Positions 3,979 through 41,448 of a stretch of 64,000 nucleotides of DNA are shown piece after piece (positions within the stretch are counted from its first letter, which is position 1; each line of letters opens with the position of its first letter). The stretch is from IMG/VR virus record IMGVR_UViG_3300029590_000324, one strand, 5' to 3'. The notes beneath the pieces were generated by a model. That model was given only the letters and a program-made list of their open reading frames with translations. It had not been told where the DNA came from and did not search any database. The position numbers were made by a program, and so were the translations under genes. The stretch comes from a virus (taxonomy: Duplodnaviria; Heunggongvirae; Uroviricota; Caudoviricetes).

Positions 3979-4079
3979 AAAAATAACTGCAAACTCTCAG
4001 TCGGTAAATCTGTACATCATCCGGATTTCGCAGGTGTAGAAGGCTACTTTCGTCCCCTCAACACCTGCCAAATCACGGA

Positions 4080-5570: not shown

Positions 5571-5605
5571 AAAACAAAATAATTGTTTAATGGAGGTTAT
5601 AAATA

Positions 5606-5839
5606 ATGAAAAAGATAATAAAATTCACATTTATTGGAAACGACAGTTACAACAGACCCGTTTATAAAAACGAAAACGGAAAGTTATTTGTTGATGTTGA
5701 TCCTCGCAAAGATCATGAGCCAAAAATATGCACAAAATATCAAAATGCCTTTGATGGCGAACCTGATACACCGATAGACTGTATAACTGCATATTGCAAT
5801 GCAGAAATTGAATTTATACCCAAACGCATTACATGGTAA
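5606..5839 (+). CDS. hypothetical protein (77 aa)
   Basis: GGAGG RBS; first gene after the repeat array. Confidence 0.5.
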   Translation: MKKIIKFTFIGNDSYNRPVYKNENGKLFVDVDPRKDHEPKICTKYQNAFDGEPDTPIDCITAYCNAEIEFIPKRITW

Positions 5840-5956
5840 TTCAACCACTGATAAAAGTTTTTATGATTATCTGCTTAATAACGGTACTTCATTTGGAGTG
5901 GCTGTAAAAACGTATGCAGAGCATCTTCTCGACACGGCTAAAAGGGAGAAATAAAA

Positions 5957-11358: not shown

Positions 11359-11675
11359 AAAAGATATCTTATGCTGAACTTGTTAAAAATGAAAATCTTA
11401 TTCTCTGCAATAACATCACGAATCTTGAGCTTGAGCTTTATTGCGGTAATGATTACGATGAAGAAGATGATTATCCTTGCGATATCTATCAGTATTATCT
11501 TATCGACCAGAGTTTTGCCGATTATCTGGCAAGAGCAACCGATGAAATCGTATACTATTGCGACGAACTTGATCTTTATGTATGGGGAGTGACTCACTTT
11601 GGCACTCCTTGGAACGGCGTTTATCTTAATGTCAAAACCTTTGATGAAATGTGCGCCGACGGTACATACGATTAA
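11355..11675 (+). CDS. acidic hypothetical protein (106 aa)
   Basis: AGAGGAG RBS; last gene of the + strand block before the lysogeny module. Confidence 0.5.
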   Translation: MKKISYAELVKNENLILCNNITNLELELYCGNDYDEEDDYPCDIYQYYLIDQSFADYLARATDEIVYYCDELDLYVWGVTHFGTPWNGVYLNVKTFDEMCADGTYD

Positions 11676-12220
11676 CTGCGGTCATGCTTATATTCCCAAA
11701 TGAAATCTGCAAATTGTCCATAGACCCGGCGCTCTAAAGATGACTTAAGAAAAGCATTACGTTGATACAGCACTGCCATTCTCTTTGCCCTTATTTCAGC
11801 TGCCGTTTTGGATATATTGCAAATCTCAGATATTTCATCTGCCGAATGAATATCACAGCCCCAAAGCACACACGCAGGAGCAAGAATGCCAATCGCAAAT
11901 CTTTCTGCCTCATACTCATCGTCGGTGGGGATGATAATATGGCCCAGCTCGTGAGCTATAGTGTATCGTCGTGCTTGGTATATTTCGGTGTCTCTTATAA
12001 TGATATAATATCTGTTGTTCTCGATAACTGTTTTTCCTCTCTGCTCGGCGGCCAAAACATAAGGACTTTCAGTCGGCAGAACAGAATCTTCTATTACTTC
12101 GGAATTGTAATGATTGCAAATCTGAGACAGTTTGACAGGGAGCGCTTTAATGTTGCAGTTGATCAAACATTGCCACGCTGCATTTCTGGCTCGTCTGTAT
12201 TTTTCATACAAAAAAATCAC
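11672..12220 (-). CDS. ImmA/IrrE-family zinc metallopeptidase (anti-repressor protease)
   Basis: HEXXH motif (IAHELGHII); immediately downstream of and co-oriented with the S24 repressor gene. Confidence 0.65.
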   Translation of the reverse strand: MIFLYEKYRRARNAAWQCLINCNIKALPVKLSQICNHYNSEVIEDSVLPTESPYVLAAEQRGKTVIENNRYYIIIRDTEIYQARRYTIAHELGHIIIPTDDEYEAERFAIGILAPACVLWGCDIHSADEISEICNISKTAAEIRAKRMAVLYQRNAFLKSSLERRVYGQFADFIWEYKHDRS

Positions 12221-12269: not shown

Positions 12270-13040
12270 TTAGTAATTGTTAGTAGATTTGGAGATGTTG
12301 CGTAAACTGTAACTGCGAGCAGCGAGCATCTGAGGTTCTTCGTTCATATAGTACCCGATGACTTTGCCAAAAATTTCGATCTTATGGTCTGTAGTTATAA
12401 CCGAATATTTGGAATTATAAGAATGAAGACCATCTTCCTGATAAACTTTAAACAGGGGACAACCATCAACTATGGCAATAACTTCATCTCCATATCGGAT
12501 CTCACAATTACGGTTTACCCAAACAATGCAGCCATTGGGATATTCAGGCTCCATGCTATCTCCGTCAATCGGAATTCCACAATCTGCACCGACAGGGATT
12601 TCGTCAATAGGAAACGACTCTTTTTCAAAAGAATCATCTTCCGTAAAGGGGAAAGAAACACCTGCGCCTGCAGCGATAACCGCAACATCCATTTTGCGCA
12701 TAGAGATTTTTCGTCTTTTGTTTTGAGATTCTACAAGTCTATCGGATATTTCAGAACAGCGACCGATAAAACGCTGTTGTTCATTATCAGGCAGCGAGTG
12801 GAAGACATTTAATAATGCTTTGTCGTTCTCAGATAATGATATTTTATCAAACAATAGGTTGTCAACGGTAACGTTAAGGTATCTTGCGATTTTAACTACA
12901 ATATCAAGAGTTATCTTAGAAGTCGGTTTCTTTTCCCACTGGCTGAATAAGCTCTTGTTACAGCCAATAGCAGCTGCAACGGAAGCTTTAGTCTTTCCGC
13001 TGTTTACTATTTTCTGTATTATGGTTTCACTGTATTCCAT
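12270..13040 (-). CDS. phage CI/LexA-like repressor (N-terminal XRE HTH plus C-terminal S24 peptidase)
   Basis: N terminus KASVAAAIGCNKSLFSQWEK (HTH); C terminus GDSMEP (S24 Ser-Lys dyad signature). Confidence 0.8.
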   Translation of the reverse strand: MEYSETIIQKIVNSGKTKASVAAAIGCNKSLFSQWEKKPTSKITLDIVVKIARYLNVTVDNLLFDKISLSENDKALLNVFHSLPDNEQQRFIGRCSEISDRLVESQNKRRKISMRKMDVAVIAAGAGVSFPFTEDDSFEKESFPIDEIPVGADCGIPIDGDSMEPEYPNGCIVWVNRNCEIRYGDEVIAIVDGCPLFKVYQEDGLHSYNSKYSVITTDHKIEIFGKVIGYYMNEEPQMLAARSYSLRNISKSTNNY

Positions 13041-13322
13041 ATTTCAATATTACCTCGTAAATTGTTGTATAGTTTCTTAATTGTATCTTTGTCGATAATA
13101 AACAAAGATGAATATAATTTGAAAAAACACTTGACTTTACGTTCAAAAGCGTATATAATCATATTATAAGTTGAATATTCTCAACTTTAGTATTATTATA
13201 CCACATTTCGTGATAAAAGTCAAGTAAACTAATTATTTCTTGTCATACACATTTGCTGTCCGATTTTCCGACCAGATCGTGTGCTACAATTAGTATGGCA
13301 AAATATATAAGGAGGTCTAAAG
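13041..13322. promoter_or_regulatory. divergent promoter/operator region of the lysogeny switch
   Basis: TTGACT (13131-13136), 17-nt spacer, TATAAT (13154-13159); perfect inverted repeat ATCTTTGT-N10-ACAAAGAT at 13084-13109 as candidate operator; TGCTACAAT extended -10 near 13280 upstream of the + strand hicA-like gene. Confidence 0.55.
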
Positions 13323-13520
13323 ATGCTTATAAAAGAATATTCTGTGCGAGAAGTGCAGGATATATTATCACGGAATGGGTTTACATATCTTAGAACTCAC
13401 GGCAGTCATCGTATTTATTCAAACGGTAATTGCAGCGTTTCAATTCCGTCTCAGAAAAAGACAGTTAATAAAATGCTGTTTCTGAGAATTATTAAAGAAA
13501 ACAATTTGATATTAAATTAA
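13323..13520 (+). CDS. hicA: HicA-family (YcfA-like) mRNA interferase toxin homologue
   Basis: NGFTYLRTHGSHRIY..VSIP..LRIIKEN aligns with the HicA consensus GW..VRQKGSH....VP.H..L..GTL..ILKQAGL, including the catalytic His; GGAGG RBS. Confidence 0.6.
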   Translation: MLIKEYSVREVQDILSRNGFTYLRTHGSHRIYSNGNCSVSIPSQKKTVNKMLFLRIIKENNLILN

Positions 13521-13536
13521 ATGGAGGATTTTACAA

Positions 13537-13776
13537 ATGGAAAATATGAATAGAATTATGGCACTTTCCCAGATGAATGATGTAGTCGATTTTGCAACGG
13601 TCGTAAGAGAAGCGGCAGACAAAGCACAGGAAAGATTTGATAAGTGGTCCGAAAAAACTCAGGAGAGCGAAACGGGCGAAACAATGCAGGAATATATCGA
13701 TCATCTCAATTCCGCTGCTGACGCTTTCGATGAAGCCTTTTCCGAACTGAATGAAGCTATAGAAATGGACGTGTAA
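13537..13776 (+). CDS. acidic hypothetical protein (79 aa); positional candidate for a non-HicB antitoxin
   Basis: Immediately downstream of hicA where hicB normally sits, but lacks the HicB RNase-H-like or RHH features. Confidence 0.4.
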   Translation: MENMNRIMALSQMNDVVDFATVVREAADKAQERFDKWSEKTQESETGETMQEYIDHLNSAADAFDEAFSELNEAIEMDV

Positions 13777-13788
13777 GAGGGTGTATAT

Positions 13789-13974
13789 ATGGAAGTAATT
13801 ATACTAATTATCATTTTTGCATATCCTTTAATTTTCTTTCTTGTCCAATCAGTTGAAGCCGACGATGAAAGAGAAGCTAAAGCCGCCGAACAGGCTGCTC
13901 GTGAAGACTTGATGAGGAGACTTGCAGAAGCAAGAAAGCGCAATGCAGAATTGCGAAATAAGAAAGGAGAATAA
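13789..13974 (+). CDS. small membrane protein (61 aa)
   Basis: N-terminal hydrophobic helix IILIIIFAYPLIFFLV followed by a charged coiled-coil tail. Confidence 0.45.
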   Translation: MEVIILIIIFAYPLIFFLVQSVEADDEREAKAAEQAAREDLMRRLAEARKRNAELRNKKGE

Positions 13975-13976
13975 TA

Positions 13977-15158
13977 ATGCTTGGATTGGTAAGTACCATT
14001 TTCGCATGGCTTGGCATTGGTGGTGCTGTGGTGCATGAAAAGGTTAAAGAAACATGTGTAGATGCAAAATTAGAAGCCGCTAAAGAATCCAGAATAGCCG
14101 CAGCTGAATATGCCAGAGTCGGTAGCATTGAAGAAAAGATTGCAAATATTAACAAGGCGACAGAGCTGGGGCTTATTTATGATGAAAAATTCCAAATAAG
14201 TATAACATTGACGATTCTTGAGTTTGCGGCACGTCGTGATGAAGATATCTCTTCTTCAGATATTAACAGGTTTAATGGAACCGTTTTTTTTAATGGAGAT
14301 CAATTTCCATCTCCTTTACTCGATAAGGAAAAAATAGATACTGTTCGTCGTTTTTTTGATTATCATGATTTTAGGATCATGGCATATGTTGCAAAGAACA
14401 GTGATGAATCAAAATACATTGAGGGGCTTACATGTAGAATCCTTAACATTCTGGGGTATTATTATGATGAAATTGTGATGGAAAAGCTTACTCATACTTC
14501 GGAATTTAGGCTTATGACTAAATGTATTTATGATCCCTATGATAAAAGTGGTCCTTTTTCACCTCGTCCCGGGTATCTGGAACTGTTTGATAAATATCAT
14601 ATTTTGTATATAAATTATCGTCAATCCGACCTTGACAATCTTTTGCCATTGGGAAAAGCAGAAAAATTAAGAAAAGCAAAAGCCGTTGGGTTATATTACG
14701 ACAGCGATGTTCTGGAAAGAATTACTTACGGAATTGCAAATCGTCGTCCCAATAATGCTCGAAACCTATTTATCGAAACACTCTTTGGACAGCCTCAAAA
14801 GCATTTATTTTACTCAAGGGAAGAAGAAATCATAAATCAAAATTTTAAAAACGTTTGCAAAGTGCTGGAAGTCGTATTGTGTCTTGAAGATCCTATTTAT
14901 TTAAAGAGATTCATGTGCAAGCTGCTGAATTGTCTTGGTTATTATTACGATGAACAATATATGCAAAACTGGCTGGATACAAAAGAGTTTTGCCATGCGG
15001 AATGTTCCAAATATAGAATGGATGAAAAAGCCAATAACCCCAAGTGCCTTCACCCTGACAGCAAAGAAATTCTGGAAAGAAATGCAGATATGCTGGCAGA
15101 AGAACTTCCGCCCGACACATGGAATAGAAATTATCAGAAAGGCAGCGAGCAAGTATGA
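13977..15158 (+). CDS. hypothetical protein (393 aa) with N-terminal TM helix and internal LNxLGYYYDE repeats
   Basis: TAATAATG start/stop overlap with upstream ORF; repeated segments RILNILGYYYDEIVMEKLTHTSEF and KLLNCLGYYYDEQYMQNWLDTKEF. Confidence 0.55.
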   Translation: MLGLVSTIFAWLGIGGAVVHEKVKETCVDAKLEAAKESRIAAAEYARVGSIEEKIANINKATELGLIYDEKFQISITLTILEFAARRDEDISSSDINRFNGTVFFNGDQFPSPLLDKEKIDTVRRFFDYHDFRIMAYVAKNSDESKYIEGLTCRILNILGYYYDEIVMEKLTHTSEFRLMTKCIYDPYDKSGPFSPRPGYLELFDKYHILYINYRQSDLDNLLPLGKAEKLRKAKAVGLYYDSDVLERITYGIANRRPNNARNLFIETLFGQPQKHLFYSREEEIINQNFKNVCKVLEVVLCLEDPIYLKRFMCKLLNCLGYYYDEQYMQNWLDTKEFCHAECSKYRMDEKANNPKCLHPDSKEILERNADMLAEELPPDTWNRNYQKGSEQV

Positions 15159-15550
15159 AATTAATCGATAACTTCAATCTTGAATTCAGCAAGAATATCA
15201 TCACATCAACGAATATTCACAACGGATTTGCAGAAATGAAGCTGGACTGGTTCCAGCTTCCGCTTGCAGTCCGGGAGAGATTGGTAATTGATACCTTAGA
15301 AAAGGAACTTGACTATGATGACCAGTGGTATTACTTTAGCATATTTGTTCCACTGCTTAATGGAATACCAAACTTTGGAGATACATACTATTATATAGAT
15401 GAATATGCTCCCAACGAACAGATGTACGAGGAGTTTGTAAAAACAAATTTTGATTTTCCGGGCTTCGTTAAAGCTTCTGTTGAAATAATAGATGTTGTTA
15501 ATCTTGCTTCGGCTTTATTGCCAAGCAAAAATATGAAAAAGCCCGCCTGA
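15155..15550 (+). CDS. hypothetical protein (131 aa); possible non-canonical antitoxin/partner of the MazF-like gene
   Basis: ATGA overlap with upstream ORF; no MazE/AbrB-like features. Confidence 0.5.
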   Translation: MKLIDNFNLEFSKNIITSTNIHNGFAEMKLDWFQLPLAVRERLVIDTLEKELDYDDQWYYFSIFVPLLNGIPNFGDTYYYIDEYAPNEQMYEEFVKTNFDFPGFVKASVEIIDVVNLASALLPSKNMKKPA

Positions 15551-15573
15551 TTCTATGAAAGGAGAACTTGTCA

Positions 15574-15984
15574 ATGAATGTTAAAACAGGAGATGTAATT
15601 AGAATAACACTGCCAAACGCTATCGGGCATCAGCAGGGCGGAGAAAGATATGCCGTCGTTGTTTCAAACAACATTGGAAATAAAGTTTCTCCTACAGTAG
15701 AGGTTCTTCCGGGAACTACAAAAAGAGATGACAGCACTCTTCCAACTCATGCACACTTTAAAGCCGGAGAAATTCAAGGACTGCCAAGAAATACGACTTT
15801 TGAAGCCGAAAGCCAATGGGTCATTAACAAATTTCAGATAATTGAAATTGTTGGGCATCTGAGCGATAAACAGCTTGAAAGAATTGCGACAGCCATGATA
15901 ATGGCGACTCCTCTTGTCTTAAAAGCTTTTGAGAGCAATGTGCATAAGACTCAGCGCTTTCAGAAAATCCTGAATTTCTCTTGA
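15574..15984 (+). CDS. mazF: MazF/PemK/EndoA-family endoribonuclease toxin
   Basis: VKTGDVIRITLPNAIGHQQGGERYAVVVSNNIGNKVSPT...LPTHAHF aligns closely with B. subtilis EndoA [39 protein letters not shown]...LPTHVEI; AAAGGAG RBS. Confidence 0.8.
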   Translation: MNVKTGDVIRITLPNAIGHQQGGERYAVVVSNNIGNKVSPTVEVLPGTTKRDDSTLPTHAHFKAGEIQGLPRNTTFEAESQWVINKFQIIEIVGHLSDKQLERIATAMIMATPLVLKAFESNVHKTQRFQKILNFS

Positions 15985-16009
15985 CATATTTGAAAACGTG
16001 TGTTATAAT
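15981..16009 (+). promoter_or_regulatory. strong sigma70-type promoter
   Basis: TTGACA (15981-15986), 17-nt spacer, TATAAT (16004-16009). Confidence 0.65.
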
Positions 16010-16061
16010 GAAGCAAATACAAGCATATACTACTTTATCATAATACATGGAGTGTGATAAC

Positions 16062-17300
16062 ATGAATGTGTCAAAAAGAAACGAAGCCATAGCGATATTA
16101 AAAAGACTATTTTCGACAAAGCTTAACGTGTGCCAAGATATTTATTCCGCTGAGCTTATAGATACCGGCAAAATGACATGGGGAGAACTTGGCCCTCTTA
16201 TGTCTAATCTCGACTTAGAAAACGTATCAGATATTGTACTGTGCTGGTTGTATGAAGCTGTGTCGAAACACAGTGCTGCACTGAAAATTCCTGATGTTTC
16301 ACATTTTTTTACCGCCTCGGAAATCACCGAGGCTAATTCTGCTTATATCAAAAGAAGCTATTCTAAATTGCCAATAGCATTTCCGATACTGGCAAGACTT
16401 ACGGACAATGATAATTATCTGACGGCATTATCCATACAGGATATTGCGAATCTGAAATCTGTTGGCATTATACAGTGGAAAGAAGGAATGCAAAGAGAAA
16501 CTGTCATTACCAAGCTTTCCGATAATGACTTTATAAGTCATATCAAATATGATGACAACCGTGCCAGAGCAATCGGAAAGTCTATGAGCGACGGAACGTT
16601 CTTTCCAAATTCTCTTCGTTGGCATATCGTGGCGGACGAATCTGACTATGAGGTAAAAGATGATAGAGTTATATTGAAATCAGGGTATATTGCCGAGATC
16701 GATGGTCAGCATCGAGATAAAGGCAGCGAGTATGCTCTTATGAATAACCCGAATATTATAATGACTATGCCCATTGTTCTGACAATAGGCTCTCGTGCAA
16801 CTGCTCAGAGAATCATCAATCAAGACGAAGAACGTGCCCCCATCAATAAGAGCGTAGTGGCTCAATACAAATATACTATGGGAAACAATGTTCTGAAAAA
16901 GATTATTGGCAGCGGCGAGCTTGACGGCATTTACAAGTTCTGTGATACTCAGCAGGGAATTCAGGTCGGTCAGGGCTTTATTCTTAAATCGGATTTTGCA
17001 GCTGCTATTGATAAGTATTATTCTGCAAGAACGGTCAAGGAACAGAGTAAAGTTGCAGAATGGCTTATTGAATTTTTTAATGAGCTTGCAAGTATCAATT
17101 ATGATGCGTTTGTAGGTTATAAAAAGAGTATCTCTGCCAAAAATTCTGTATTTCCGATCTATGTTTATTTAAGTAGTAAACTTCAGAATCGTTCAGGCTG
17201 GGAAGATGAACTTGCTGCTGTTTTCCCTAAATTGGATTTTTTAAATTCAAAAAAGAGTATAGAAATAATCAATAAAGAAATGGGGGAGAAGAATGTATAA
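16062..17300 (+). CDS. DGQHR-domain protein (DndB-like, ParB/Srx superfamily)
   Basis: Literal IDGQHR motif (YIAEIDGQHRDKG); GGAG RBS 9 nt upstream. Confidence 0.6.
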   Translation: MNVSKRNEAIAILKRLFSTKLNVCQDIYSAELIDTGKMTWGELGPLMSNLDLENVSDIVLCWLYEAVSKHSAALKIPDVSHFFTASEITEANSAYIKRSYSKLPIAFPILARLTDNDNYLTALSIQDIANLKSVGIIQWKEGMQRETVITKLSDNDFISHIKYDDNRARAIGKSMSDGTFFPNSLRWHIVADESDYEVKDDRVILKSGYIAEIDGQHRDKGSEYALMNNPNIIMTMPIVLTIGSRATAQRIINQDEERAPINKSVVAQYKYTMGNNVLKKIIGSGELDGIYKFCDTQQGIQVGQGFILKSDFAAAIDKYYSARTVKEQSKVAEWLIEFFNELASINYDAFVGYKKSISAKNSVFPIYVYLSSKLQNRSGWEDELAAVFPKLDFLNSKKSIEIINKEMGEKNV

Positions 17301-18231
17301 CGAGGAAAAAAAGCTGGAATTCTTGGCAAGCATGAAAGAAGGAAGCTATACGGACATGTCTTGCAATACCTATATGTATAAGTTCGAAAAATTTTCCGAC
17401 ACTGAAGAGCTTCTTAAAAAAGACCTATATGATTTTAATTATAACGATTTTAAACTTTTGTTTGAGAGAAATAAAATCATTAACACCAATACCATGCTTA
17501 ACAGCAAGAGTATTATAAATAGGTATATAGAATGGGCAACCAAGATGGGATACTGTTCAATCGATACCATAAATGAACTTAAAAGAGTTATAAGCGAAGA
17601 CATAAATCCAAGATGGAAAATCATAACTGAAATGTTTGCAGACGAAAATGATTTGTTGGATTGTATCAGCAGTGTTATGATGGAACAGGATTCCTCGATG
17701 ATAATTTGGTATCAGGCTTTTTATGGTTTGTATTGGAATGGATTATGCAATGTAGAAATCTATAATCTGAAAAAATCAGACGTGCAGGGCAATCGTATAA
17801 AAGTTGGAGACGATACTATTATAGTATCAGATCGTTTTGCTGAAATAATTAATGAGTATAAGGACATGGATAGTGTCGTAATAAACGATAGTGTTATGCC
17901 ATTTGCTCAGTCTATTTATCTGATAAGAGCTAAGAATAAAAAGAATTCCCTTGGCCAGATCAACGATAATTTCCATGCTCAGCGCAGAAGAGCATGGGAC
18001 AGAATGGAGGTTGATATTGATAATAAGTATTATGGTAAAGTTCTCGTCCCCACTTGGATAATGAGATCCGGTAATTTTTATCGTGCATATCTCGACGAGC
18101 AGAAGGGAAAGGAAATCACATCAAACAATATATCGGATTATTTTAGAGTGTTTGCTATTTCAAATCAGAAAAAAATTGGTTATAGCACATATCGTGATTA
18201 TCAGAATTGGAAAAACGTTTTCTATAAATGA
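17293..18231 (+). CDS. hypothetical protein (312 aa) overlapping the DGQHR gene end
   Basis: 8-nt overlap with the upstream gene implies coupling; no clear tyrosine-recombinase R..HxxR..Y pattern. Confidence 0.5.
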   Translation: MYNEEKKLEFLASMKEGSYTDMSCNTYMYKFEKFSDTEELLKKDLYDFNYNDFKLLFERNKIINTNTMLNSKSIINRYIEWATKMGYCSIDTINELKRVISEDINPRWKIITEMFADENDLLDCISSVMMEQDSSMIIWYQAFYGLYWNGLCNVEIYNLKKSDVQGNRIKVGDDTIIVSDRFAEIINEYKDMDSVVINDSVMPFAQSIYLIRAKNKKNSLGQINDNFHAQRRRAWDRMEVDIDNKYYGKVLVPTWIMRSGNFYRAYLDEQKGKEITSNNISDYFRVFAISNQKKIGYSTYRDYQNWKNVFYK

Positions 18232-18287
18232 TCCGCTGCCTGTGATATGGCAGTACATAAAAAATTTTTAGCAACATCCACAATCGC

Positions 18288-18316
18288 TTGACAAGTTTAA
18301 ACTCATCTGATATAAT
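18288..18316 (+). promoter_or_regulatory. sigma70-type promoter upstream of tRNA-Lys
   Basis: TTGACA (18288-18293), 17 nt, TATAAT (18311-18316); upstream element CATCCACAATCGCTTGACA shared with the promoter at 41440. Confidence 0.6.
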
Positions 18317-18532
18317 ATAAATACAGTCAAGGGAGAACGGTTCAGAAATGAGCCGTTATTCCAAGAAGCCCAAAACATATTGGATATAATGAACAATCTT
18401 TCCTCAACTCTTGATGGGGCTGCTGGGTGGAATATCGGAGATGTTATTTAACCTGTAACTGTAAGTTACAAAAATGTTCATAATTATATTTTTGTCAGGT
18501 ATAAATTGCAAAATCAAAGTATGAAAAATTAT

Positions 18533-18608
18533 GAGTCATTAGCTCAGTCGGTAGAGCAGTAGTCTTTTAAACTATTGGTCTGGGGTTCAAATCCCCAATG
18601 GCTCACCA
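18533..18608 (+). tRNA. tRNA-Lys (anticodon TTT)
   Basis: Cloverleaf folded by hand: acceptor GAGTCAT/ATGGCTC, D arm GCTC..GAGC, anticodon stem GTAGT/ACTAT with loop CTTTTAA, T arm TGGGGTTCAAATCCCCA, encoded CCA. Confidence 0.75.
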
Positions 18609-18690
18609 AATATATGTTTTTTATACTATTATTCATTGGTGCGAAAACATATTGGATATTTTACAATTTAAAAATTAAGGAGGAGTCATC

Positions 18691-19347
18691 ATGACCAACG
18701 AAAAAATGACAATCACAAAGGCACTTTCCGAGCTGAAGGTGCTCGGTAACAGAATCACAGCAGAGATTCGCAGTGCGACATTCTGTAACGTAAGCAAGCA
18801 TACAATGCGCACGCTAAACGGCAAAAATATCACTGACGTAAAGGCAGAGATGCAGGGCAGCTATGATAAAATAGTCGCTCTCATCAACAGGAATAATGCC
18901 ATCAAGAAAGCAGTGAATAAGGCAAACGCTTCCACAATCGTATCTATCGGTGGAGAGCAAATGACTGTCGCCGAAGCTATTTATATGAAGCAGACGGGTA
19001 TTGATTATATGAAGGCTCTGCTCAATACCATGACAACTCAATATACAAATACACAGAGCCTGCTCCAGAATAATAATGGAGAAAAGTTAACAAGGGCTTG
19101 TGAGGCCTATATCGTTAGCCTTTATGGAACAAACAGCAGCAATAACACTATTTCCAGCGAAATGGTGGAGACCATAAATGCGGCAAGAGCGAAATATATT
19201 GATGAGAATACTTTTGATCTCATCGAAGGTATTGATACAAAAAAAGCAATCGAAGATCTGAAGAATAAGATCGACGCTTTCGAAGCTGAGGTGGATGCAG
19301 CCATTACAGTGGCAAATGCAACCACCGAAATTGAAATCAGTTACTGA
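18691..19347 (+). CDS. hypothetical protein (218 aa)
   Basis: AAGGAGGAG RBS; perfect hairpin TGATTAAgTTAATCA directly at the stop codon. Confidence 0.55.
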   Translation: MTNEKMTITKALSELKVLGNRITAEIRSATFCNVSKHTMRTLNGKNITDVKAEMQGSYDKIVALINRNNAIKKAVNKANASTIVSIGGEQMTVAEAIYMKQTGIDYMKALLNTMTTQYTNTQSLLQNNNGEKLTRACEAYIVSLYGTNSSNNTISSEMVETINAARAKYIDENTFDLIEGIDTKKAIEDLKNKIDAFEAEVDAAITVANATTEIEISY

Positions 19348-19504
19348 TTAAGTTAATCATCCATCGTCAACCGAAAATACTTAACTGGTTTCAACTGAAC
19401 ATCAACAGTCTAAAATGATGAACAAAACAATTTGAAACTGCAAAAGCTTTCAAATGCTAAAGATATTATTCAGATAAGAATATCGAGTATTTATGATGTT
19501 TTCG

Positions 19505-19680
19505 GGCAGAGTTTAAAGTTCGAATAATAGCTGAAAGTTTAAAATTCAAAGCTTAATTGTTTTAAACATTAAAGTTCAGAATTTATGGTAGCAGACGTGC
19601 GTACTTGATGGCAGACTTGCTGCACTTCAAAGTTCAAATTGTAAATTGTAAATCATAAAGTTCATAGAAATCCCCGATAT
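19505..19680. repeat. five direct copies of AAAGTTCA(R)AAT-like motif in a non-coding AT-rich region
   Basis: TTAAAGTTCGAATAAT, GAAAGTTTAAAATTCAAAG, TTAAAGTTCAGAATTTAT, TTCAAAGTTCAAATTG, ATAAAGTTCATAGAAAT; also GCAGAC(G/T)TGC repeated twice. Confidence 0.5.
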
Positions 19681-19819
19681 AGGTTAAAGCGGCGAATCCA
19701 TCGGCTGTGTGTGATCCTCGGGGCTGGTTGATGGTGGATAAACATTTATATACCCCCTACGATGGCAAGCTCCTCTTAGCGTTGAAGATCTCATGTGCAG
19801 TACGTCAAGCTGCACGAAT

Positions 19820-19915
19820 GCAACAATAAGCCTAATTTGGTAAGGCAGGAGGTTGCTAACCTCTGAGTAATCATCGTATGATGGTGTTCGAGTTCGAGTC
19901 TCGGTTGTTGCGCCA
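19820..19915 (+). tRNA. tRNA-Ser (anticodon GCT), class II with long variable arm
   Basis: Acceptor GCAACAA/TTGTTGC perfect; 3-bp D stem; anticodon stem GGAGG/CCTCT with loop TTGCTAA; 23-nt variable arm; T arm TCGAG-TTCGAGT-CTCGG; discriminator G; encoded CCA. Confidence 0.7.
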
Positions 19916-20106
19916 ACGGAATTAGTGTAATTAAAAAAAATAAATAATTGGTAAAATGAAATCTGAAGCGAACCACTGTGCAAGTACCTTTATTCATGAG
20001 ATTGGGGAAAAGTAGTAGCAAAGAGCCAATTACATAACGCCGGTCTTCCACCCCGGAATTGTTGGTTATACTCCAATCACTAAATCCTTTTTTATTTATT
20101 ATTTGA

Positions 20107-20182
20107 TGGGATATCGCCAAGAGGGAAGGCAGTAGATTTTGACTCTACCATTCCGTGTGTTCGAATCACACTATCCCAACCA
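20107..20182 (+). tRNA. tRNA-Gln (anticodon TTG)
   Basis: Acceptor TGGGATA/TATCCCA (U1-A72); anticodon stem GTAGA/TCTAC with loop TTTTGAC; T arm GTGTG-TTCGAAT-CACAC; encoded CCA. Confidence 0.65.
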
Positions 20183-20931
20183 ATATCCATACCCTCTTAG
20201 TCAAGGAGTTAAGACGTCGTTAAAACGAAGGCATTGGGTGCAAATCCCGTAGATGGATATGGATACAACAATAAAGCACCCTACACCTTAACATAATCTC
20301 GGAGCAGTACGCATAATCGAAGGTCGGTCAGGGTGCATATATGAGCCGTTGCTTGGGGTAAGTACCCGAGCGGCTCACCAATGATACCGATAAGCAGATG
20401 CAGACTGAAGCTTGTAGGTGAAAACTCAGTGGCCAAGGTCATCTGTGCTGCATAACAGATGATAGCAAGGGGTAAAACGTGGCGGAGATTATCTTAGTGT
20501 CACCCTTGTAACTGTAAAATCCACATCAGCTTGCGGTATGGCGATATAGCTGTCTGAGTGGTTGAGGTTCGGACATTACCGATTCCGATATAAGACCGCA
20601 CGGGTGCTCCGCTGCCCATTATGATTTAAACGCGGCCTTTAGTTCCTGATAAGATCGACTCCCTGACGAGGGATAGGTCTGGCAAGTTTAAATACAGCTT
20701 CGGCTTATTGGAGACGCCTACGGGTGCAGAAGCCAGAACTCACAAGATAACGTTAAAACAGAAATGTGAAAAACAGGTTTTGCAGGGGTTCCTTAATACC
20801 GCCGTATAGAGGGTGTGATGAGCAAGGATCCAGCTCGTTGCGCAACATAAGAAATGTTGTCACGCCGTAAGACCCGAATCGGCAGATGTCGAAGCTGGAC
20901 ATCGTGGCAGCCCGGAAAGACGGGCACATAA

Positions 20932-21008
20932 CTCCCAGTAGTCCAGAGGCAGGAGACAAGGGACTTAAAATCCCTACAGGATGGGTTCGAATCCCATCTG
21001 GGAGACCA
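20932..21008 (+). tRNA. tRNA with anticodon TAA (Leu by anticodon) but class I architecture with a short variable loop
   Basis: Acceptor CTCCCAG/CTGGGAG; anticodon stem AGGGA/TCCCT with loop CTTAAAA; 5-nt variable loop; T arm ATGGG-TTCGAAT-CCCAT; discriminator A; encoded CCA. Confidence 0.6.
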
Positions 21009-21012
21009 ACAT

Positions 21013-21095
21013 GCGGGTGTGGTGAAATTGGCAGACACGATAGACTTAGGATCTATTGCGCAAGCGTGCAGGTTCAAGTCCTGTCACCCGCACCA
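21013..21095 (+). tRNA. tRNA-Leu (anticodon TAG), long variable arm
   Basis: Acceptor GCGGGTG/CACCCGC; anticodon stem ATAGA/TCTAT with loop CTTAGGA; variable hairpin TGCGCAAGCGTG; T arm GCAGG-TTCAAGT-CCTGT; discriminator A; encoded CCA. Confidence 0.7.
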
Positions 21096-21142
21096 GATGT
21101 TAATAATAGCTAACGTCAGTTGCTATATTATTAACGAAATAT

Positions 21143-21227
21143 GCGAGAGTGCTGGAATAGGCAGACAGAGCAGTCTCAAAAACTGCTGCAAGAATGCGTG
21201 TGGGTTCGAAGCCCATCTCTCGTACCA
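21143..21227 (+). tRNA. tRNA-Leu (anticodon CAA), long variable arm
   Basis: Acceptor GCGAGAG/CTCTCGT; anticodon stem GCAGT/ACTGC with loop CTCAAAA; long variable arm; T arm GTGGG-TTCGAAG-CCCAT; discriminator A; encoded CCA. Confidence 0.7.
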
Positions 21228-21289: not shown

Positions 21290-22600
21290 CCAGCCGCAAT
21301 CCCATTGGCTTTAGACGATGGGTTAAGCTCGCTGTGATATAACAGTGATGTAGAAAGGCGGTAACAAACCAATGTTTAAATCATTCAAATATAGGCTTTA
21401 TCCAAATAAAACACAAGAAATACAAATTCAGAAAACATTCGGTTGTTGTAGATTTGTTTATAATCAGACGCTTGCTTATAGGAAAAATCTTTATGAAGCA
21501 GAAAAGAAATCTATAAACAAGATAGGTTGTAACAACTATGTTAATCAAGTTCTTAAAAAAGAATATGAATGGCTTAAAGAGGTAGACAAATTTGCTCTTA
21601 CTAATTCTGTTTATAATATGGATAGCGCATATCAGAAATTTTTCAAAGAACATTCTGGTTATCCTAAATTCAAAAGTAAGAAGAATAATCATAAATCTTA
21701 TTCTACTAACAGTACAAACAACAACATAGAGGTTGATTTCGAGAAGAACAGAATTAAGCTTCCAAAACTTAAATGGGTAAAAGCAAAAGTTCATAGAGTA
21801 TTTGTTGGTATAATTAAATCTGCAACTTTATCTCAAACGCCAAGTGGCAAGTATTTTATTTCTATTCTTGTAAATTGTGAGAATTTTCAGATGAAGTCTA
21901 CTGGTGCTATGGTTGGTATTGATTTAGGTATCAAGGATTTAGTCATCACATCTGATGGTGAAAAGTTTGAAAACTCCAAAACTCTTTACAAGTATGAAAA
22001 GAAACTTGTAAAGGAGCAAAGAAAACTTGCTAAAAAGACAAAGGGTAGCAATAATAGGAACAAACAGCGTATTAAAGTCGCAAGACTGTATGAGAAGATA
22101 ACAAATATCCGTGTTGATAATTTGCATAAAATTTCTCACAAACTAATTCAGGAAAACCAACTGATAGTGAGTGAGGACTTAAAAATTAGCAATATGGTTA
22201 AAAATCATAATCTTGCAAAGAGTATTTCTGATTGTAGTTGGTATGAACTTACAAGGCAGTTACAGTACAAGGTTCACTGGAATGGTAGACAGTATATCAA
22301 GATTGATACTTACTTTCCAAGTAGTCAGACTTGTAGTGTATGTGGGTATATTAATAAGGAAACTAAGGATTTATCTGTAAGAGAGTGGACTTGTCCTTGT
22401 TGTAATACACGTCACGACAGAGATATAAACGCTGCTATAAATATTTTGTATGAAGGATTAAGGCTGATTAAATCAGCCTAAATAATAATGTAGTACGGTA
22501 GGAACTATCGGAATTTACGCTTGTGAAGTTAGTAGGTTACGAGGACGATGAAGCAAGAAGCCGACTGGCTTTAGACGGTCGGTAGTTCACAAGCAGTATT
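21290..22600 (+). mobile_element. IS200/IS605-family element carrying only tnpB (IS1341-like), with subterminal hairpins
   Basis: Left hairpin CCCATTGGCTTTAGACGATGGG (21301-21322) and right hairpin CCGACTGGCTTTAGACGGTCGG (22561-22582) share the loop TGGCTTTAGACG and flank the tnpB ORF; boundaries approximate. Confidence 0.5.
21372..22481 (+). CDS. tnpB: TnpB (IS605 OrfB-family RNA-guided nuclease-like transposase accessory protein)
   Basis: N-terminal [16 protein letters not shown] typical of OrfB; C-terminal RuvC-like region with zinc finger CSVCGY..CPCCN; 369 aa. Confidence 0.8.
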
Positions 22601-22822: not shown

Positions 22823-23131
22823 ATGACAAATAATTATAATGCTTCGAATTATGCCAAAGGCTCCGATGGTGCAAAGCTGAATGACGAAAATCTTAAGGAA
22901 ATGAATGCTTCCGGTAAGTGTAATACTTGTAAATATTTTCAGTTCAGAGGTTACAAATGTACGAAGAAGACTGAGGAAGGCAATTTTGTTCGTTCTGCCA
23001 TGATGCCAATTACATATACCGAAACAACTTCAAAGGGCAATTTTATCAACGTGTTAAAGCCCTCTTCTTGCAAGGATTATGAGAGTAAGGGTAAGCGCAA
23101 GATTGAAAAGACAGAGGAGGCGGCCGAATGA
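22823..23131 (+). CDS. Cys-containing hypothetical protein (102 aa)
   Basis: ORF after the IS right end; weak RBS. Confidence 0.4.
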   Translation: MTNNYNASNYAKGSDGAKLNDENLKEMNASGKCNTCKYFQFRGYKCTKKTEEGNFVRSAMMPITYTETTSKGNFINVLKPSSCKDYESKGKRKIEKTEEAAE

Positions 23132-23700
23132 AACTTCTCGTAGTGGTTGATATGCAGAATGACTTTATCGATGGGTCTCTCGGTTCTGATGCAGCACAGG
23201 CAATCGTTCCTAATGTAGTTGAAAAAATCAAATCTGCTGATAAAAACACGGCAATTTTATTCACAAAAGATACTCATTATAACGATTATGCTGAAACTCT
23301 TGAGGGGAGAAAACTTCCTGTTCAGCACTGTCTCGCTCGTTCTTTCGGCTGGATGATAAATGATGATGTCGCTGACGCATGGTATCACTCCAATACATAT
23401 GCAATATTGGAGCCCGAAGTCAGAGAAGGGAACATCGTTCTTAAGAACACATTTGGCAGTACCCAGCTTATGAGTTTACTTATTCGTGAAGGTAAAATGT
23501 TCGACGAAATTGAATTTATCGGGCTGGACACCGATATCTGTGTTGTATCCAATGCCCTCATGGTGAGAGCTGCACTTCCTGATATGCCAATCGTTGTTGA
23601 CGCCTCCTGTTGTGCCGGATCAACACCTGAAAAGCATAAGGCGGCACTCGAAGTTATGAAGAGCTGTCAGATTGATATCATAAACGAGAGCGAGGTATAA
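23128..23700 (+). CDS. pncA: nicotinamidase (isochorismatase family)
   Basis: VVVDMQNDF (catalytic Asp), TKDTH..PVQHCL (metal-binding His pattern as in PncA WPxHCV), GLDTDICV (catalytic Cys). Confidence 0.7.
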   Translation: MKLLVVVDMQNDFIDGSLGSDAAQAIVPNVVEKIKSADKNTAILFTKDTHYNDYAETLEGRKLPVQHCLARSFGWMINDDVADAWYHSNTYAILEPEVREGNIVLKNTFGSTQLMSLLIREGKMFDEIEFIGLDTDICVVSNALMVRAALPDMPIVVDASCCAGSTPEKHKAALEVMKSCQIDIINESEV

Positions 23701-23702
23701 CT

Positions 23703-24527
23703 ATGATTTACATAAATAATGCACCTTTTGGAGATAAAAGTTTTCCTAATGGTGAAACCATTTTTGATATGGGAACTTATTATGTCAAGGATGCAGTAAA
23801 TGAAATCAAGCTTGTATATGAATCGGACGCTGATATCTTTAAGCTCATTGTGGCCAAGAAGTGTCTTGATGAACAGTCAAAGGAAAACAGAGTTGATTAC
23901 GGTTGGGATGAAGCAATCATAACTCTGACCATTGCATATATGCCATATTCAAGAATGGATAGGCAGATGTCTTCAATGGCGTTCAGCCTCAGATATGTTG
24001 CCGATATCATCAATTCTCTTAATTTTGATTCGGTAACAATACTTACACCTCACTCCAATGTAACTCCGGCACTTATTAACAATGTCAGAACCATATACGA
24101 TATCGGCGTTAATGAGGCATATAAATACAGTTCCCCCGATTACGTATTCTATCCCGACAACGGAGCCTGCAAGTCGTTTGGAGAACATCTCAAATATACT
24201 AATTACTTTTACGGTAACAAGAAGCGTGAGCTTTCAACCGGAAAGATTGAAAAGTATGAGCTGGTTAATGCCCCCGATATTAAGGACAAAAACATTCTGA
24301 TAATCGATGACCTTTGTGTTAAGGGCGGCACATTTATTCTTGCAGCTCAGGCTCTTAAAGCGGCAGGTGCAGCCAAGGTAGATTTGTTTGTAACTCATCT
24401 TGAAAAGGCTGTGTATAAAGGAATACTGCTCACGACAGACTGGATTGATCATATCTATACAGTCAATACACTGGAAATCCCCATTGAAAACGACAAAATA
24501 ACAGAAATAAGAGGTAATTTCATATGA
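23703..24527 (+). CDS. ribose-phosphate pyrophosphokinase (Prs)-family protein; candidate ADP-ribose pyrophosphokinase (Adps-like)
   Basis: IAYMPYSRMDRQ resembles Prs IPYFGYARQDRR; PRPP-binding loop IIDDLCVKGGT resembles VLVDDMIDTAGT; stop overlaps the NAMPT-like gene start. Confidence 0.6.
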   Translation: MIYINNAPFGDKSFPNGETIFDMGTYYVKDAVNEIKLVYESDADIFKLIVAKKCLDEQSKENRVDYGWDEAIITLTIAYMPYSRMDRQMSSMAFSLRYVADIINSLNFDSVTILTPHSNVTPALINNVRTIYDIGVNEAYKYSSPDYVFYPDNGACKSFGEHLKYTNYFYGNKKRELSTGKIEKYELVNAPDIKDKNILIIDDLCVKGGTFILAAQALKAAGAAKVDLFVTHLEKAVYKGILLTTDWIDHIYTVNTLEIPIENDKITEIRGNFI

Positions 24528-25990
24528 ATGAAATAATGCCAATGCTTCTTTGTGATTTTTACAAAGAGTGTATGATGGTTCAGCAGAGCCCTAAGCTCAC
24601 TAAGCTCGTATCCTATATGACACCAAGAATGTCCAGAGTACACGATGACAAACTCGTCTTCTTCGGACTTCAGGCGTTTATCGAGAAGTATCTTGTGGAA
24701 TATTTCAATAACGAATTTTTCAATAAGCCTGTCGATGAGGTCTGCGCCGAGTATGAAAGAGTTCTCGGCAGCACTCTCGGCAAGGGTACATATGATACCG
24801 CAAAAATCAGAGCTCTTCACGAGCTGGGCTATTTGCCTGTTAAGATATCGGCACTTCCCGAGGGAACCCGTGTCCCCATGCACGTTCCTATGCTGGAAAT
24901 AAGCAGCACACACCCTGATTTTATATGGGTCGGACAGTTCCTTGAAAGTCTTATGAGTGCTTCACTCTGGCATCCAATGGTGTCTGCAAATGTGGGTTAT
25001 TGGTATCGTCAGATCGTTGATAAGTTCTACGACATCAGCGTTGAAGATGACGTGCCCAGAGCCAAGGCTCTCGGAGACTTTTCATTCAGAGGTCAGCATA
25101 GTCTTGAAAGTGCGACTGCCTCTTCTGCCGGTTGGTGTACTTCGTTTCTGAATACAGCGACAGTACCCGCAATTCCTTGGCTGGAAAAATATTATCACTG
25201 CGATTGTACCAAGGAGCCCGTAGCTTACGGGGCGGTATCAACCGAACATTCAGTGATGACCAGCAACTTCTCTATCGACGGCGATGAGATTACATTTCTC
25301 CGTAAGCTGCTGACTGAGCTTTATCCCAATAACAGTTTCAGTGTAGTATGCGATTCTTATGATTACTGGAATGTAGTCAATAATATTTTGCCTCAGCTAA
25401 AGCCTGAAATTATGGCTCACAACGGCTGTATGCTGATAAGAGGGGACAGCGGAGACCCTGTTGAGATAGTGACCGAAACTGTGTTTGCACTCTGGGAAGA
25501 ATTCGGCGGAACAGTCAACAGCAAGGGTTATAAGGTACTCGACCCTCACGTTAAGGCGATTTACGGGGACAGTATCACCGTTCAGCGCTGTCAGCAGATA
25601 TACCAGAGGCTCATTGACAACGGTTTTGCCTGCAATAATGTAATCCTCGGTGTCGGCAGCTTCTCAATGATGTGCGTTGAAGAGGACAATATGCTCAAGC
25701 CTTTTACCCGTGATACATATTCAATAGCTATTAAGGCGACTTATGGTGAGGTAGATGGTAAGCCCATAATGATTTTTAAGAATCCCAAGACAGATACGGG
25801 ATTCAAGAAGTCCCAGAAGGGTATGTGCTTTATCTATAAAGAGCACGGCGAGATAAAGTATCAGGACGGCTTTACAGCTGAGACAGTTCCTGTCAATGGC
25901 TTGTTCCGCACAGTGTTCGAGGATGGTAAATGCTATAATACTCAGACGCTTGCTGACGTTCGTAATACGCTTTACGAAGGAGGATTCTGA
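24524..25990 (+). CDS. nicotinamide phosphoribosyltransferase (NAMPT/NadV) family enzyme; candidate Namat-like
   Basis: Several blocks align with human NAMPT: ALPEGTRVP~AVPEGFVIP, LGDFSFRGQHSLESA~LHDFGYRGVSSQETA, SVVCDSYDYWN~SVVSDSYDIYN, LIRGDSGDP~IIRPDSGNP, NSKGYKVLDPHVKAIYGDSI~[20 protein letters not shown]. Confidence 0.85.
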   Translation: MNEIMPMLLCDFYKECMMVQQSPKLTKLVSYMTPRMSRVHDDKLVFFGLQAFIEKYLVEYFNNEFFNKPVDEVCAEYERVLGSTLGKGTYDTAKIRALHELGYLPVKISALPEGTRVPMHVPMLEISSTHPDFIWVGQFLESLMSASLWHPMVSANVGYWYRQIVDKFYDISVEDDVPRAKALGDFSFRGQHSLESATASSAGWCTSFLNTATVPAIPWLEKYYHCDCTKEPVAYGAVSTEHSVMTSNFSIDGDEITFLRKLLTELYPNNSFSVVCDSYDYWNVVNNILPQLKPEIMAHNGCMLIRGDSGDPVEIVTETVFALWEEFGGTVNSKGYKVLDPHVKAIYGDSITVQRCQQIYQRLIDNGFACNNVILGVGSFSMMCVEEDNMLKPFTRDTYSIAIKATYGEVDGKPIMIFKNPKTDTGFKKSQKGMCFIYKEHGEIKYQDGFTAETVPVNGLFRTVFEDGKCYNTQTLADVRNTLYEGGF

Positions 25991-26418
25991 TGACACCAAC
26001 AGTAAAAGAAGACGATGCTTTCGTAGATGGTTTTCTGTATAAGCGTCTCAGAGATGCCTACGTGGAGCATGACCGCTTGATAATTGCATATGACCTTGAC
26101 GATACAGTGAGGCCATATAAAAGCGAATGCTGTGATCACACGAAGAACTTGATACGCAAAGCAAAAGCGGTTTTGAACCCCTATTTCATCGTGTTTACAG
26201 CCAATCCTCACAACGAAAAGAATATCCAGTTTCTTCATGATGAGAACCTTCCATTCGATACTATCAACGAGAATATCCCGGAAATTGGCAGATATGGAGA
26301 CGGTTTGAAGATATATTATAACCTATTTCTTGATGATAAGGCCGGACTTTTCGAGGCTTGTAATGCCCTGGCAACACTTTGTTGGCAAGTGGAAATGGGA
26401 TATGTAAATAAGGAGTGA
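25990..26418 (+). CDS. HAD-superfamily phosphatase-like protein (142 aa)
   Basis: Motif I IAYDLDDTV (DxDxT); sits within the NAD module. Confidence 0.45.
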   Translation: MTPTVKEDDAFVDGFLYKRLRDAYVEHDRLIIAYDLDDTVRPYKSECCDHTKNLIRKAKAVLNPYFIVFTANPHNEKNIQFLHDENLPFDTINENIPEIGRYGDGLKIYYNLFLDDKAGLFEACNALATLCWQVEMGYVNKE

Positions 26419-26422
26419 TATT

Positions 26423-26797
26423 ATGGCACAAATTGGAATCAGAAACAGTTGTAAAACAGTCAAATTAAAAAATATACCAGTCGGAAATTTATTTATGAAG
26501 AATGGTTCTTACTATATCAATACTGATATGAGCTTAGCAATGAGAAAGCGTATTCTTGAACTTACTGGTGTTGATATAATGATTGACGGGAAGACATTTA
26601 AGTCAACATACCAGATAATGCTCGAGATAGCTGACAAGTGGTCTGAACTTTCTGACGTCGACAGGACTGCATTGCTTGAAATGAATGGCATTACTAAGCG
26701 TTCTTGTGTTGTCAATCTTCAATCTGGGATAGCTTCCTATATGAGTGATGACGAAATCGTAATAAAAATCAATAATTCTATAACTTTGGACGAATGA
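26423..26797 (+). CDS. hypothetical protein (124 aa)
   Basis: ORF within the NAD module; no known motif. Confidence 0.45.
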   Translation: MAQIGIRNSCKTVKLKNIPVGNLFMKNGSYYINTDMSLAMRKRILELTGVDIMIDGKTFKSTYQIMLEIADKWSELSDVDRTALLEMNGITKRSCVVNLQSGIASYMSDDEIVIKINNSITLDE

Positions 26798-26809
26798 GGA
26801 GAAATTAAG

Positions 26810-41430: not shown

Positions 41431-41448
41431 TTCCACATCCACAATCCC

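Follow-up and report, generated by a model that had tools for sequence, protein, structure and literature searches.

The 64,000-nucleotide (nt) stretch of IMG/VR record IMGVR_UViG_3300029590_000324 (Caudoviricetes), analysed as a whole and referred to here as the window, contains two overlapping genes, the products of which are designated P1 and P2. We consider it probable, at roughly three chances in four, that this pair is a module of the SroE/SroF type by which a large, SPbeta-like temperate phage controls lysis and lysogeny. Its members being distant relatives of YopQ and YopR that reside in a roughly 149-kilobase (kb) gut phage, the pair most likely serves the phage's own control of lysogeny and is not an added defence. 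The yopQ and yopR genes are co-transcribed from the dormant SPbeta prophage; damage to yopR resulted in clear plaques, and deletion of yopQ led to no phage induction, but to translucent, lysing colonies (bioRxiv 10.1101/2021.11.22.469490). The yopMNOPQR genes were renamed sroABCDEF, with YopR (SroF) as the master repressor (PMC10769878), and another study describes SroE as 'a second repressor' needed to establish lysogeny in SPbeta-like phages (bioRxiv 10.1101/2025.11.27.690993). MrpR, which is identical to YopR/SroF, is the SPbeta master repressor and has a tyrosine-recombinase fold from which recombinase activity has been lost (PMC10516654). SroF acts as a monomer encircling a 26-base-pair non-palindromic box and is inactivated by a LexA-controlled, DNA-mimicking antirepressor; MrpR occupies ten dispersed promoter-proximal SPBRE elements across the SPbeta genome.

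Two overlapping genes related to yopQ and yopR

The open reading frame (ORF) of P1 (412 amino acids, aa) encodes YIAEIDGQHRDKG and contains the literal IDGQHR motif. An alternative ATG at position 16047 is used by gene callers; the start at 16062 was preferred because GGAG is located 9 nt upstream and the homologues align from that Met. The ORF of P2 (312 aa) begins within the end of P1, the 8-nt overlap (17293-17300) being ATGTATAA, and its start is preceded by GGGGGAG; this layout indicates translational coupling. The promoter in front of the pair comprises TTGACA (15981-15986) and TATAAT (16004-16009) separated by a 17-nt spacer, with a score of 12/12. Four such perfect TTGACA-17-TATAAT sites are present in the 64-kb window, versus 0.027 expected from shuffled sequences, and the orthologue in one of the related metagenomic loci introduced below (L011) is also preceded by a near-identical promoter, so that the pair's own promoter is conserved there. 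The motif, the promoter and the overlap had all been reported in a preliminary description of this DNA and were reproduced, as was the lack of dnd or ssp modification genes among the window ORFs examined. The coordinates of these and further features are listed in Table 1.

Table 1. Features of the window that bear on the P1-P2 pair, with strand and supporting evidence or remark.
Feature	Position	Strand	Basis or remark
ImmA-like metalloprotease	11672-12220	-	window annotation
Helix-turn-helix (HTH) + Peptidase_S24 CI/LexA-like repressor	12270-13040	-	phrog_4, Peptidase_S24
MazF/PemK-like endoribonuclease gene	15568-15984	+	PF02452, phrog_1936, 4mdx
Sigma-A/sigma-70 consensus promoter TTGACA-17-TATAAT	15981-16009	+	TG-extended -10
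P1, YopQ/SroE family, predicted ParB/sulfiredoxin-fold core with DGQHR	16062-17300	+	phrog_5732, tblastn, alignment, AlphaFold2 fold
Q144-R145-E146 of P1	16491-16499	+	21-member alignment
D214-G215-Q216-H217-R218 of P1	16701-16715	+	21-member alignment
P2, MrpR/SroF/YopR-type tyrosine-recombinase fold (by homology)	17293-18231	+	PF22822, phmmer, tblastn
Second perfect promoter, just 3' of the pair	18288-18316	+	sequence scan
Candidate operator copy 1, CATATTGGATAT	18376-18387	+	leader after the 18288 promoter
Candidate operator copy 2	18648-18659	+	17 nt before the ribosome-binding site of the next gene (18691)
Candidate operator copy 3	41453-41464	+	abuts the -35 box, in the spacer of the perfect promoter at 41449
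Candidate operator copy 4	41640-41651	+	12-mer scan
Candidate operator copy 5	58090-58101	+	abuts the -35 box, in the spacer of the strong promoter at 58086
Candidate operator copy 6	5165-5176	-	12-mer scan

P1 matched phrog_5732 over residues 25-410 (E 6e-40). In tblastn searches it matched yopQ of SPbeta (E 8e-6, 24% identity over 72% of the query) and of phi3T, as well as genes of Psychrobacillus phage Perkons (E 1e-16), Geobacillus virus E3, Clostridium phage c-st (approximately 22% identity) and Mammaliicoccus phage phi6255; the Perkons and E3 matches covered 84-86%. An alignment of 21 family members, including SPbeta YopQ and other phage homologues, revealed invariant residues Q144, R145, I171, D214, G215, H217, R218 and Q254, with E146 nearly invariant, and P1 and YopQ share the resulting QR...DGxHR...Q pattern. 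The motif generalises to DG[Q/Y/F]HR in this alignment, the third position being Y or F in the Bacillus-type phages. A search with the family profile returned 932 clusters at 50% identity (776 of them at E <= 1e-10), nearly all of 410-460 aa. The same profile yielded 35 pattern matches and no true relative among GTDB genomes, and no copy from a prophage of an isolate genome was obtained.

A phmmer search of P1 against PDB sequences gave nothing at E <= 1. An AlphaFold2 model of P1 was built on 26 homologues (predicted local distance difference test score of 89). Its top structural matches were the ParB-like PadC, KorB, sulfiredoxin, ParB, Noc and DUF262 proteins; among viral models a YopQ-like protein came first, followed by 'DNA-sulfur modification-associated' and GmrSD-N (DndB-like) proteins. 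In the model, the DGQHR motif is predicted to sit on a ParB/sulfiredoxin fold, and we take the invariant D-G-x-H-R as the counterpart of box II of ParB and of the GCHR by which sulfiredoxin binds phosphate. Judged from the alignments and the model, P1 is correctly placed in the ParB/sulfiredoxin DGQHR clade as far as family and fold are concerned. This part of the preliminary description, which had assigned the protein to the DndB-type DGQHR domain, was retained; the narrower DndB assignment was not, as P1 scored below the cutoffs of both PF14072 (DndB; 15.0 bits versus 29.1) and TIGR03187 (14.3 bits versus 58.85), an outcome that the description itself had named as speaking against its proposal. 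P1 lies under these curated cutoffs because its sequence is too divergent; 13 of the 21 family members individually match PF14072 at E < 0.01, the best at 8.7e-18. DndB (PF14072/TIGR03187) regulates the dnd phosphorothioation operon, and this DGQHR protein was characterised as a sequence-specific transcriptional regulator (PMC4507180), in agreement with the regulatory role proposed here for P1. The two share the motif and a ParB/sulfiredoxin-type fold; P1 differs in its sub-threshold scores, the lack of dnd or ssp genes nearby, its additional N- and C-terminal helical regions and its integrase-fold partner.

The partner, previously described as a protein of unknown function, was recognised as a homologue of the MrpR/SroF-type integrase-fold repressors. 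PF22822 (MrpR N-terminal core-binding domain) matched residues 1-83 of P2 above its cutoff (52.4 bits versus 27, E 8.8e-14). PF22823 (MrpR_C_cat) is present in the precomputed record of the exact P2 protein and was not reproduced by our own hmmscan at E <= 1. In phmmer comparisons with solved structures, residues 2-305 aligned to 9rd5 (E 4e-8), of the SroF/MrpR/YopR group, and P2 also aligned with the YopR/MrpR chains 8bjv, 8bj6 and 8a0a (8bjv and 8a0a at E 3e-4 to 6e-4). Furthermore, phrog_5830 matched P2 end to end (residues 1-308, E 1.9e-21), and tblastn recovered yopR of SPbeta and phi3T. The active-site positions of P2 were mapped through the low-identity phmmer alignment onto Table 3 of the MrpR study (PMC10516654). 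On this alignment the site appears degenerate in the manner of MrpR: Arg-I is lost (no Arg in residues 138-167 of P2; V137/S138 in MrpR), as are His-II (T254; N254 in MrpR) and His/Trp-III (A288; V291 in MrpR), and the Lys (K170; K169 in MrpR), Arg-II (R258 in both) and Tyr (Y303; Y304 in MrpR) positions are kept. In several members of the P2 family, F, W or D stands in place of this Tyr, and hmmscan gave no match of P2 to PF00589 (Phage_integrase) at E <= 1. By these sequence criteria, P2 is a member of the MrpR/SroF/YopR family, sharing with MrpR the pattern of lost and kept active-site residues and, to judge from the phmmer alignments, apparently also the integrase-like fold over most of its length.

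Conserved gene order, divergence of the pair and a repeated 12-mer

The order of a YopQ-like gene followed by an adjacent or overlapping YopR-like gene was found in SPbeta, where yopQ and yopR close the yopMNOPQR series, and in phi3T, Perkons, E3, c-st and phi6255; the downstream partners in the latter four were confirmed as MrpR-domain proteins. The order is also kept at ten metagenomic loci (L007-L011 and L012-L016), in three of which (L009, L010 and L016) the downstream ORF had no Pfam or tblastn match to P2 and was assigned by position and a 13%-identity alignment only. Across these phages and metagenomic loci the YopQ-like gene always had the repressor-type gene for a partner (by position in the three loci just named), and dnd and ssp genes were seen neither in the window nor in any of the 15 related loci inspected. 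The association considered in the preliminary description as pointing to a conventional regulator, a constant companionship with dndACDE or sspABCD elsewhere, was accordingly not encountered in those 15 loci.

The window is part of the 148.6-kb JGI metagenome contig Ga0495776_101950, and IMG/VR viral contigs of 111-146 kb carry copies that are 98-99% identical. It is transcribed almost wholly from one strand and encodes PolIII-alpha, a DnaB-like helicase, an ATP-dependent DNA ligase, an anaerobic ribonucleotide reductase, ThyX and a dUTPase. It represents a large SPbeta-like phage genome, not a bacterial chromosome carrying a moron. The pair had been proposed to occupy a prophage moron position; it lies instead at a conserved syntenic core position of the roughly 149-kb phage genome, and the moron position was rejected on synteny.

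Divergence was expressed as identity to the window proteins in syntenic relatives. In L007, L011 and L015, respectively, P2 was 27, 36 and 36% identical, P1 48, 53 and 54%, the MazF-like protein encoded upstream 64, 62 and 73%, and the product of a flanking 218-aa gene 96, 67 and 68%. P2 diverged fastest in each of these loci, followed by P1, and the flanks were better conserved. Such a pattern, as read from sequence identities, is what one classically expects of an immunity cassette that can be exchanged.

The 12-mer CATATTGGATAT occurs six times in the window versus 0.013 times expected, and we regard it as a candidate operator of P2. The pair's own promoter contains only a degenerate copy, ACATATTTGAAAA. 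The word is kept at both sites after P2 in relatives with 94-99% identical P2, and copy 1 is retained in L012-L014. A 12-mer search of the related loci did not show operator conservation across lineages: CATATTGGATAT was absent from those with divergent P2 (27-36% identical), which, on informal comparison, appear to carry other repeated words at these positions. In SPbeta, SPBRE copies abut the -35 box of aimR and are located just before the ribosome-binding sites of yopM and yopV; the SPBRE and the window 12-mer occupy the same kinds of position, at promoters and in leaders. A second shared element of 19 nt, CATCCACAATC(G/C)CTTGACA, was identified at 18275-18293 and 41436-41454, in two perfect promoters separated by 23 kb (chance expectation, 0.02 matches), and may be an UP-like or activator site distinct from CATATTGGATAT.

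The MazF-like gene lies directly upstream of the pair, its stop codon overlapping the -35 box of the pair's promoter. PF02452 is on record for its product, which matched phrog_1936 (E 3.5e-17) and has Bacillus subtilis EndoA/MazF as its closest solved relative (4mdx, E 1.8e-13, full length). In L011 a PemK-like gene immediately precedes the pair; in L007, L008 and c-st at most one gene separates the two, and tblastn detected a MazF-like homologue just upstream in L012-L015. SPbeta and the other Bacillus-type phages have a yopP-type integrase gene just upstream, at the place where the window lineage and c-st have the PemK/MazF-like gene. A HicA gene (13323-13520) and the MazF-like gene share the pair's rightward block, and no HicB or MazE was recognisable in the 13323-15984 block. 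The upstream ORFs of 393 and 131 aa had no family match and no AimR-like or antitoxin assignment; the conserved 131-aa ORF (15155-15550), just upstream of the MazF-like gene, might be its antitoxin. Host MazF is central to the lysis-lysogeny decision of phi3T (PMC10769878), and SPbeta and phi3T act on host MazEF through arbitrium.

Proposed mechanism and competing explanations

The observations described above concern the homology and order of the two genes, the catalytic residues lost from P2, the fold, the cassette-like divergence of the pair and the repeated motif; DNA binding, the sites bound, nucleotide binding by P1 and a repression phenotype are proposals that go beyond them. If it behaves like its homologues SroF and MrpR, P2 would bind as an encircling monomer to non-palindromic operator boxes scattered over early promoters and leaders. 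Its binding would shut down the lytic programme, and the lysogen would presumably resist superinfection by phages of like immunity type. That P2 would in this way be the operator-specific repressor that sets immunity is suggested by its homology and residue pattern, by the way the pair diverges and by the repeated motif. By analogy to ParB, sulfiredoxin and DndB, P1 may be a co-repressor that binds nucleotide, associates with DNA and assists in setting up or stabilising repression, its synthesis probably being coupled to that of P2 at the level of translation. As the pair has its own constitutive consensus promoter, it could be expressed from an otherwise silent prophage.

Several points weigh against this proposal. 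Function is transferred over a long distance, because the identity to the SPbeta and phi3T proteins is only 22-25%, with tblastn E values of 1e-4 to 1e-6. Moreover, even for SPbeta the study that describes SroE as a second repressor assigns it no molecular role (bioRxiv 10.1101/2025.11.27.690993). Neither arbitrium genes nor a yopP-like third gene turned up beside the pair. The 12-mer is tied to P2 by position only and could be a promoter element, because three of its copies contain TATAAT. Finally, the master repressor could in truth be the CI/LexA-like HTH-S24 protein, which is accompanied by the ImmA-like protease and by a region of divergent promoters and operators (12270-13223).

The last point leads to an alternative that we consider unlikely, namely that the CI/LexA-like protein with its ImmA-like protease is the real lysogeny repressor, the pair being an auxiliary regulator of a sub-regulon or a second layer that serves, for example, in establishment only. 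The CI-like protein, which contains Peptidase_S24, gave a match of E 4.5e-33 to phrog_4 ('transcriptional repressor'). The palindrome AAGTTGAGAATATTCAACTT is common to two divergent near-consensus promoters, at 13131 (+) and 13223 (-). The relatives L012-L015 carry the module as well, and in SPbeta the deletion of yopQ alone leaves the prophage uninduced (bioRxiv 10.1101/2021.11.22.469490). However, the syntenic loci L007, L008 and L011 retain P1 and P2 but lack the module, which makes it accessory in this lineage. The stretches retrieved around the pair in c-st and the SPbeta-type phages have no annotated CI-like gene, and Brady et al. did not find cI-like repressors in SPbeta-family phages. 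In SPbeta-like phages the SOS input reaches SroF via the LexA-controlled antirepressor, and a phage LexA-like protein could therefore act upstream of the pair. The CI/ImmA module could be a second or SOS-sensing layer, or even the dominant repressor in this phage.

It is improbable that the locus is a self-contained switch in which the MazF-like protein is an integral phage arm and P1 acts as a nucleotide-gated, ParB-like clamp, resembling KorB-KorA, at P2-bound operators. KorB-KorA of RK2 and the ParB family employ a clamp mechanism dependent on cytidine triphosphate, which served us as a lead only. P1 has no sequence-level relationship with these proteins, and its motif is DGQHR, not the GERRxR pocket. 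If the clamp reading were true, the role of SroE would be long-range, nucleoside triphosphate-dependent silencing from a few CATATTGGATAT boxes over 149 kb; if the switch were self-contained, the phage-encoded MazF would be an integral arm of the lysis-lysogeny decision.

The preliminary description had viewed the pair as a candidate exclusion or DNA-sensing system. As a moron-borne anti-phage defence, in which a DGQHR ParB-like nuclease or DNA sensor would work with an effector partner, this is very improbable. Toxin genes (HicA and MazF-like) do neighbour the pair, and a repressor does exclude phages of the same immunity, as demonstrated for SroF, which blocks its cognate phage in trans (PMC13220667). 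Nevertheless, PADLOC-DB 2.0 returned no defence family at E <= 1 for P1 or P2, and P1 has no attached nuclease domain (HNH or DUF1524) of the kind present in GmrSD and SspE. The partner is an SroF/MrpR homologue, and the pair, which is orthologous to the experimentally defined yopQ-yopR repressor operon, is fixed at a syntenic core position in complete large phage genomes. Exclusion would survive only as repressor-mediated superinfection immunity.

Also very improbable is a DNA-handling module, in which a ParB-like centromere or accessory protein would cooperate with an active tyrosine recombinase in integration, dimer resolution or plasmid-prophage partition. The ParB/sulfiredoxin fold of P1, the recombinase fold of P2, the maintenance of c-st as a plasmid prophage and nine CTAAA-N4-TTTAG palindromes at 4088-5546, which could be a centromere-like site, agree with such a role, but they are opposed by the degenerate active site of P2, the missing PF00589 match, the variable Tyr position, the lack of an adjoining ParA-type ATPase and the use, by SPbeta and its relatives, of a separate serine recombinase, seen beside the pair in L009 and L010. 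MrpR itself shows no recombination activity (PMC10516654), and P2 as an active recombinase was rejected on its residue pattern.

The palindromes form an array of nine copies of (T)ATCTAAA-N4-TTTAG(T/C)(G/A)A in one orientation, eight of them with the exact CTAAA-N4-TTTAG core. They are spaced by approximately 130-150 nt, save for a 469-nt gap after the first copy, and the sequence between the copies is not conserved. The array occupies an ORF-poor stretch downstream of a 459-aa ORF (1292-2671) with a reverse-transcriptase domain (PF00078, E 7e-21). It was not picked up by Rfam, and Tandem Repeats Finder reported nothing in 3900-5900, because the spacers are variable; ATCTAAA-N4-TTTAG was found in none of the related loci searched. 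Possible readings of the array are an origin or a set of iterons, a site resembling a centromere, a series of protein-binding sites or a group of small transcription units.

Accessory genes, probable host and relation to known systems

Downstream of the pair, a cluster of six transfer RNA (tRNA) genes (18533-21227; Lys-UUU, Ser-GCU, Gln-UUG, Leu-UAA, Leu-UAG and Leu-CAA) is followed by an IS605-type TnpB gene (21372-22481), flanked by similar 26-nt sequences at 21298 and 22558. In Geobacillus virus E3, an IS605 OrfB is located just after the YopR homologue. A cluster for the salvage and synthesis of nicotinamide adenine dinucleotide (NAD) at 23128-27625 encodes isochorismatase/nicotinamidase-like and PRPP-synthetase-like proteins, NAMPT/NAPRTase and NAD synthase, and is kept in the relatives L007 and L011; it resembles the phage NAD-reconstitution pathways that counter NAD-depleting defences. 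A 732-aa fusion of a P-loop kinase, a metallophosphatase and a T4-type RNA ligase 1 domain (44209-46407; Pnkp/Rnl-like RNA repair) plausibly counters tRNA-cleaving defences.

An array of clustered regularly interspaced short palindromic repeats (CRISPR) was detected inside the phage genome at 61739-62358. It comprises ten copies of an approximately 32-nt repeat, GTCACACCCTCACGGGTGTGTGAGTTGAAAT, at a spacing of 64-67 nt, and no cas genes were recognised in the two adjoining ORFs. An array of 29 repeats in Huintestinicola butyrica (Oscillospiraceae) is matched by the core of the repeat. Taken together with NrdD, this match makes a gut anaerobe of the Clostridia/Oscillospiraceae the probable host.

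When compared with the SroE-SroF pair of SPbeta and phi3T, the last two members of sroABCDEF, the window pair comprises the same two families, arranged alike in order and orientation, and the genes adjoin or overlap. Both SPbeta and the window genome are large and encode PolIII-alpha, DnaB and DUF7448, and YorF and a serine recombinase were seen in relatives of the window. Protein identity is only 22-25%, and the motif is literally DGQHR in the window versus DGYHR in SPbeta. The aimR-aimP-aimX genes and sroA-D (yopM-P) of SPbeta were not recognised upstream of the window pair. Unlike in SPbeta, the pair has its own perfect promoter, and the CI-S24/ImmA module is located 3 kb upstream of it; the host of SPbeta is Bacillus, in contrast to the probable clostridial gut anaerobe. 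Clostridium botulinum phage c-st resembles the window in several of these respects. Its genes CST029 and CST030 were annotated as YopQ and YopR homologues in the same order, overlapping, the first with an LDGQHR motif and approximately 22% identity to P1, and the second matching MrpR_N_CB at 78 bits. A PemK/MazF-family gene lies two genes upstream, with a 218-aa ORF inserted between it and the pair.

On the sequence evidence, the pair adds a remote member (22-25% identity) to a system that was described between 2021 and 2025, and the homology to YopQ and YopR had already been noted by the annotators of c-st. New with respect to the known system are the linked phage MazF-like gene, the lack of recognisable arbitrium and sroA-D genes, the occurrence in gut-anaerobe phages and the ParB/sulfiredoxin signature of the SroE family. 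Three testable leads follow: the conserved ParB/sulfiredoxin nucleotide-pocket signature of SroE (QR...DGxHR), a candidate operator word for a divergent repressor, and a MazF-like gene linked to the pair, which echoes the MazF dependence of phi3T. Annotators who meet a DGQHR match beside an 'integrase' in large phages of Bacillota should think of sroE-sroF instead of phosphorothioation or defence. What looked like an orphan DGQHR 'defence' candidate would thereby be re-filed as a lysogeny-control module of a large uncultivated gut phage, and the integrase-fold repressor system of SPbeta would extend beyond the arbitrium phages of Bacillus to phages of Clostridia-type anaerobes.

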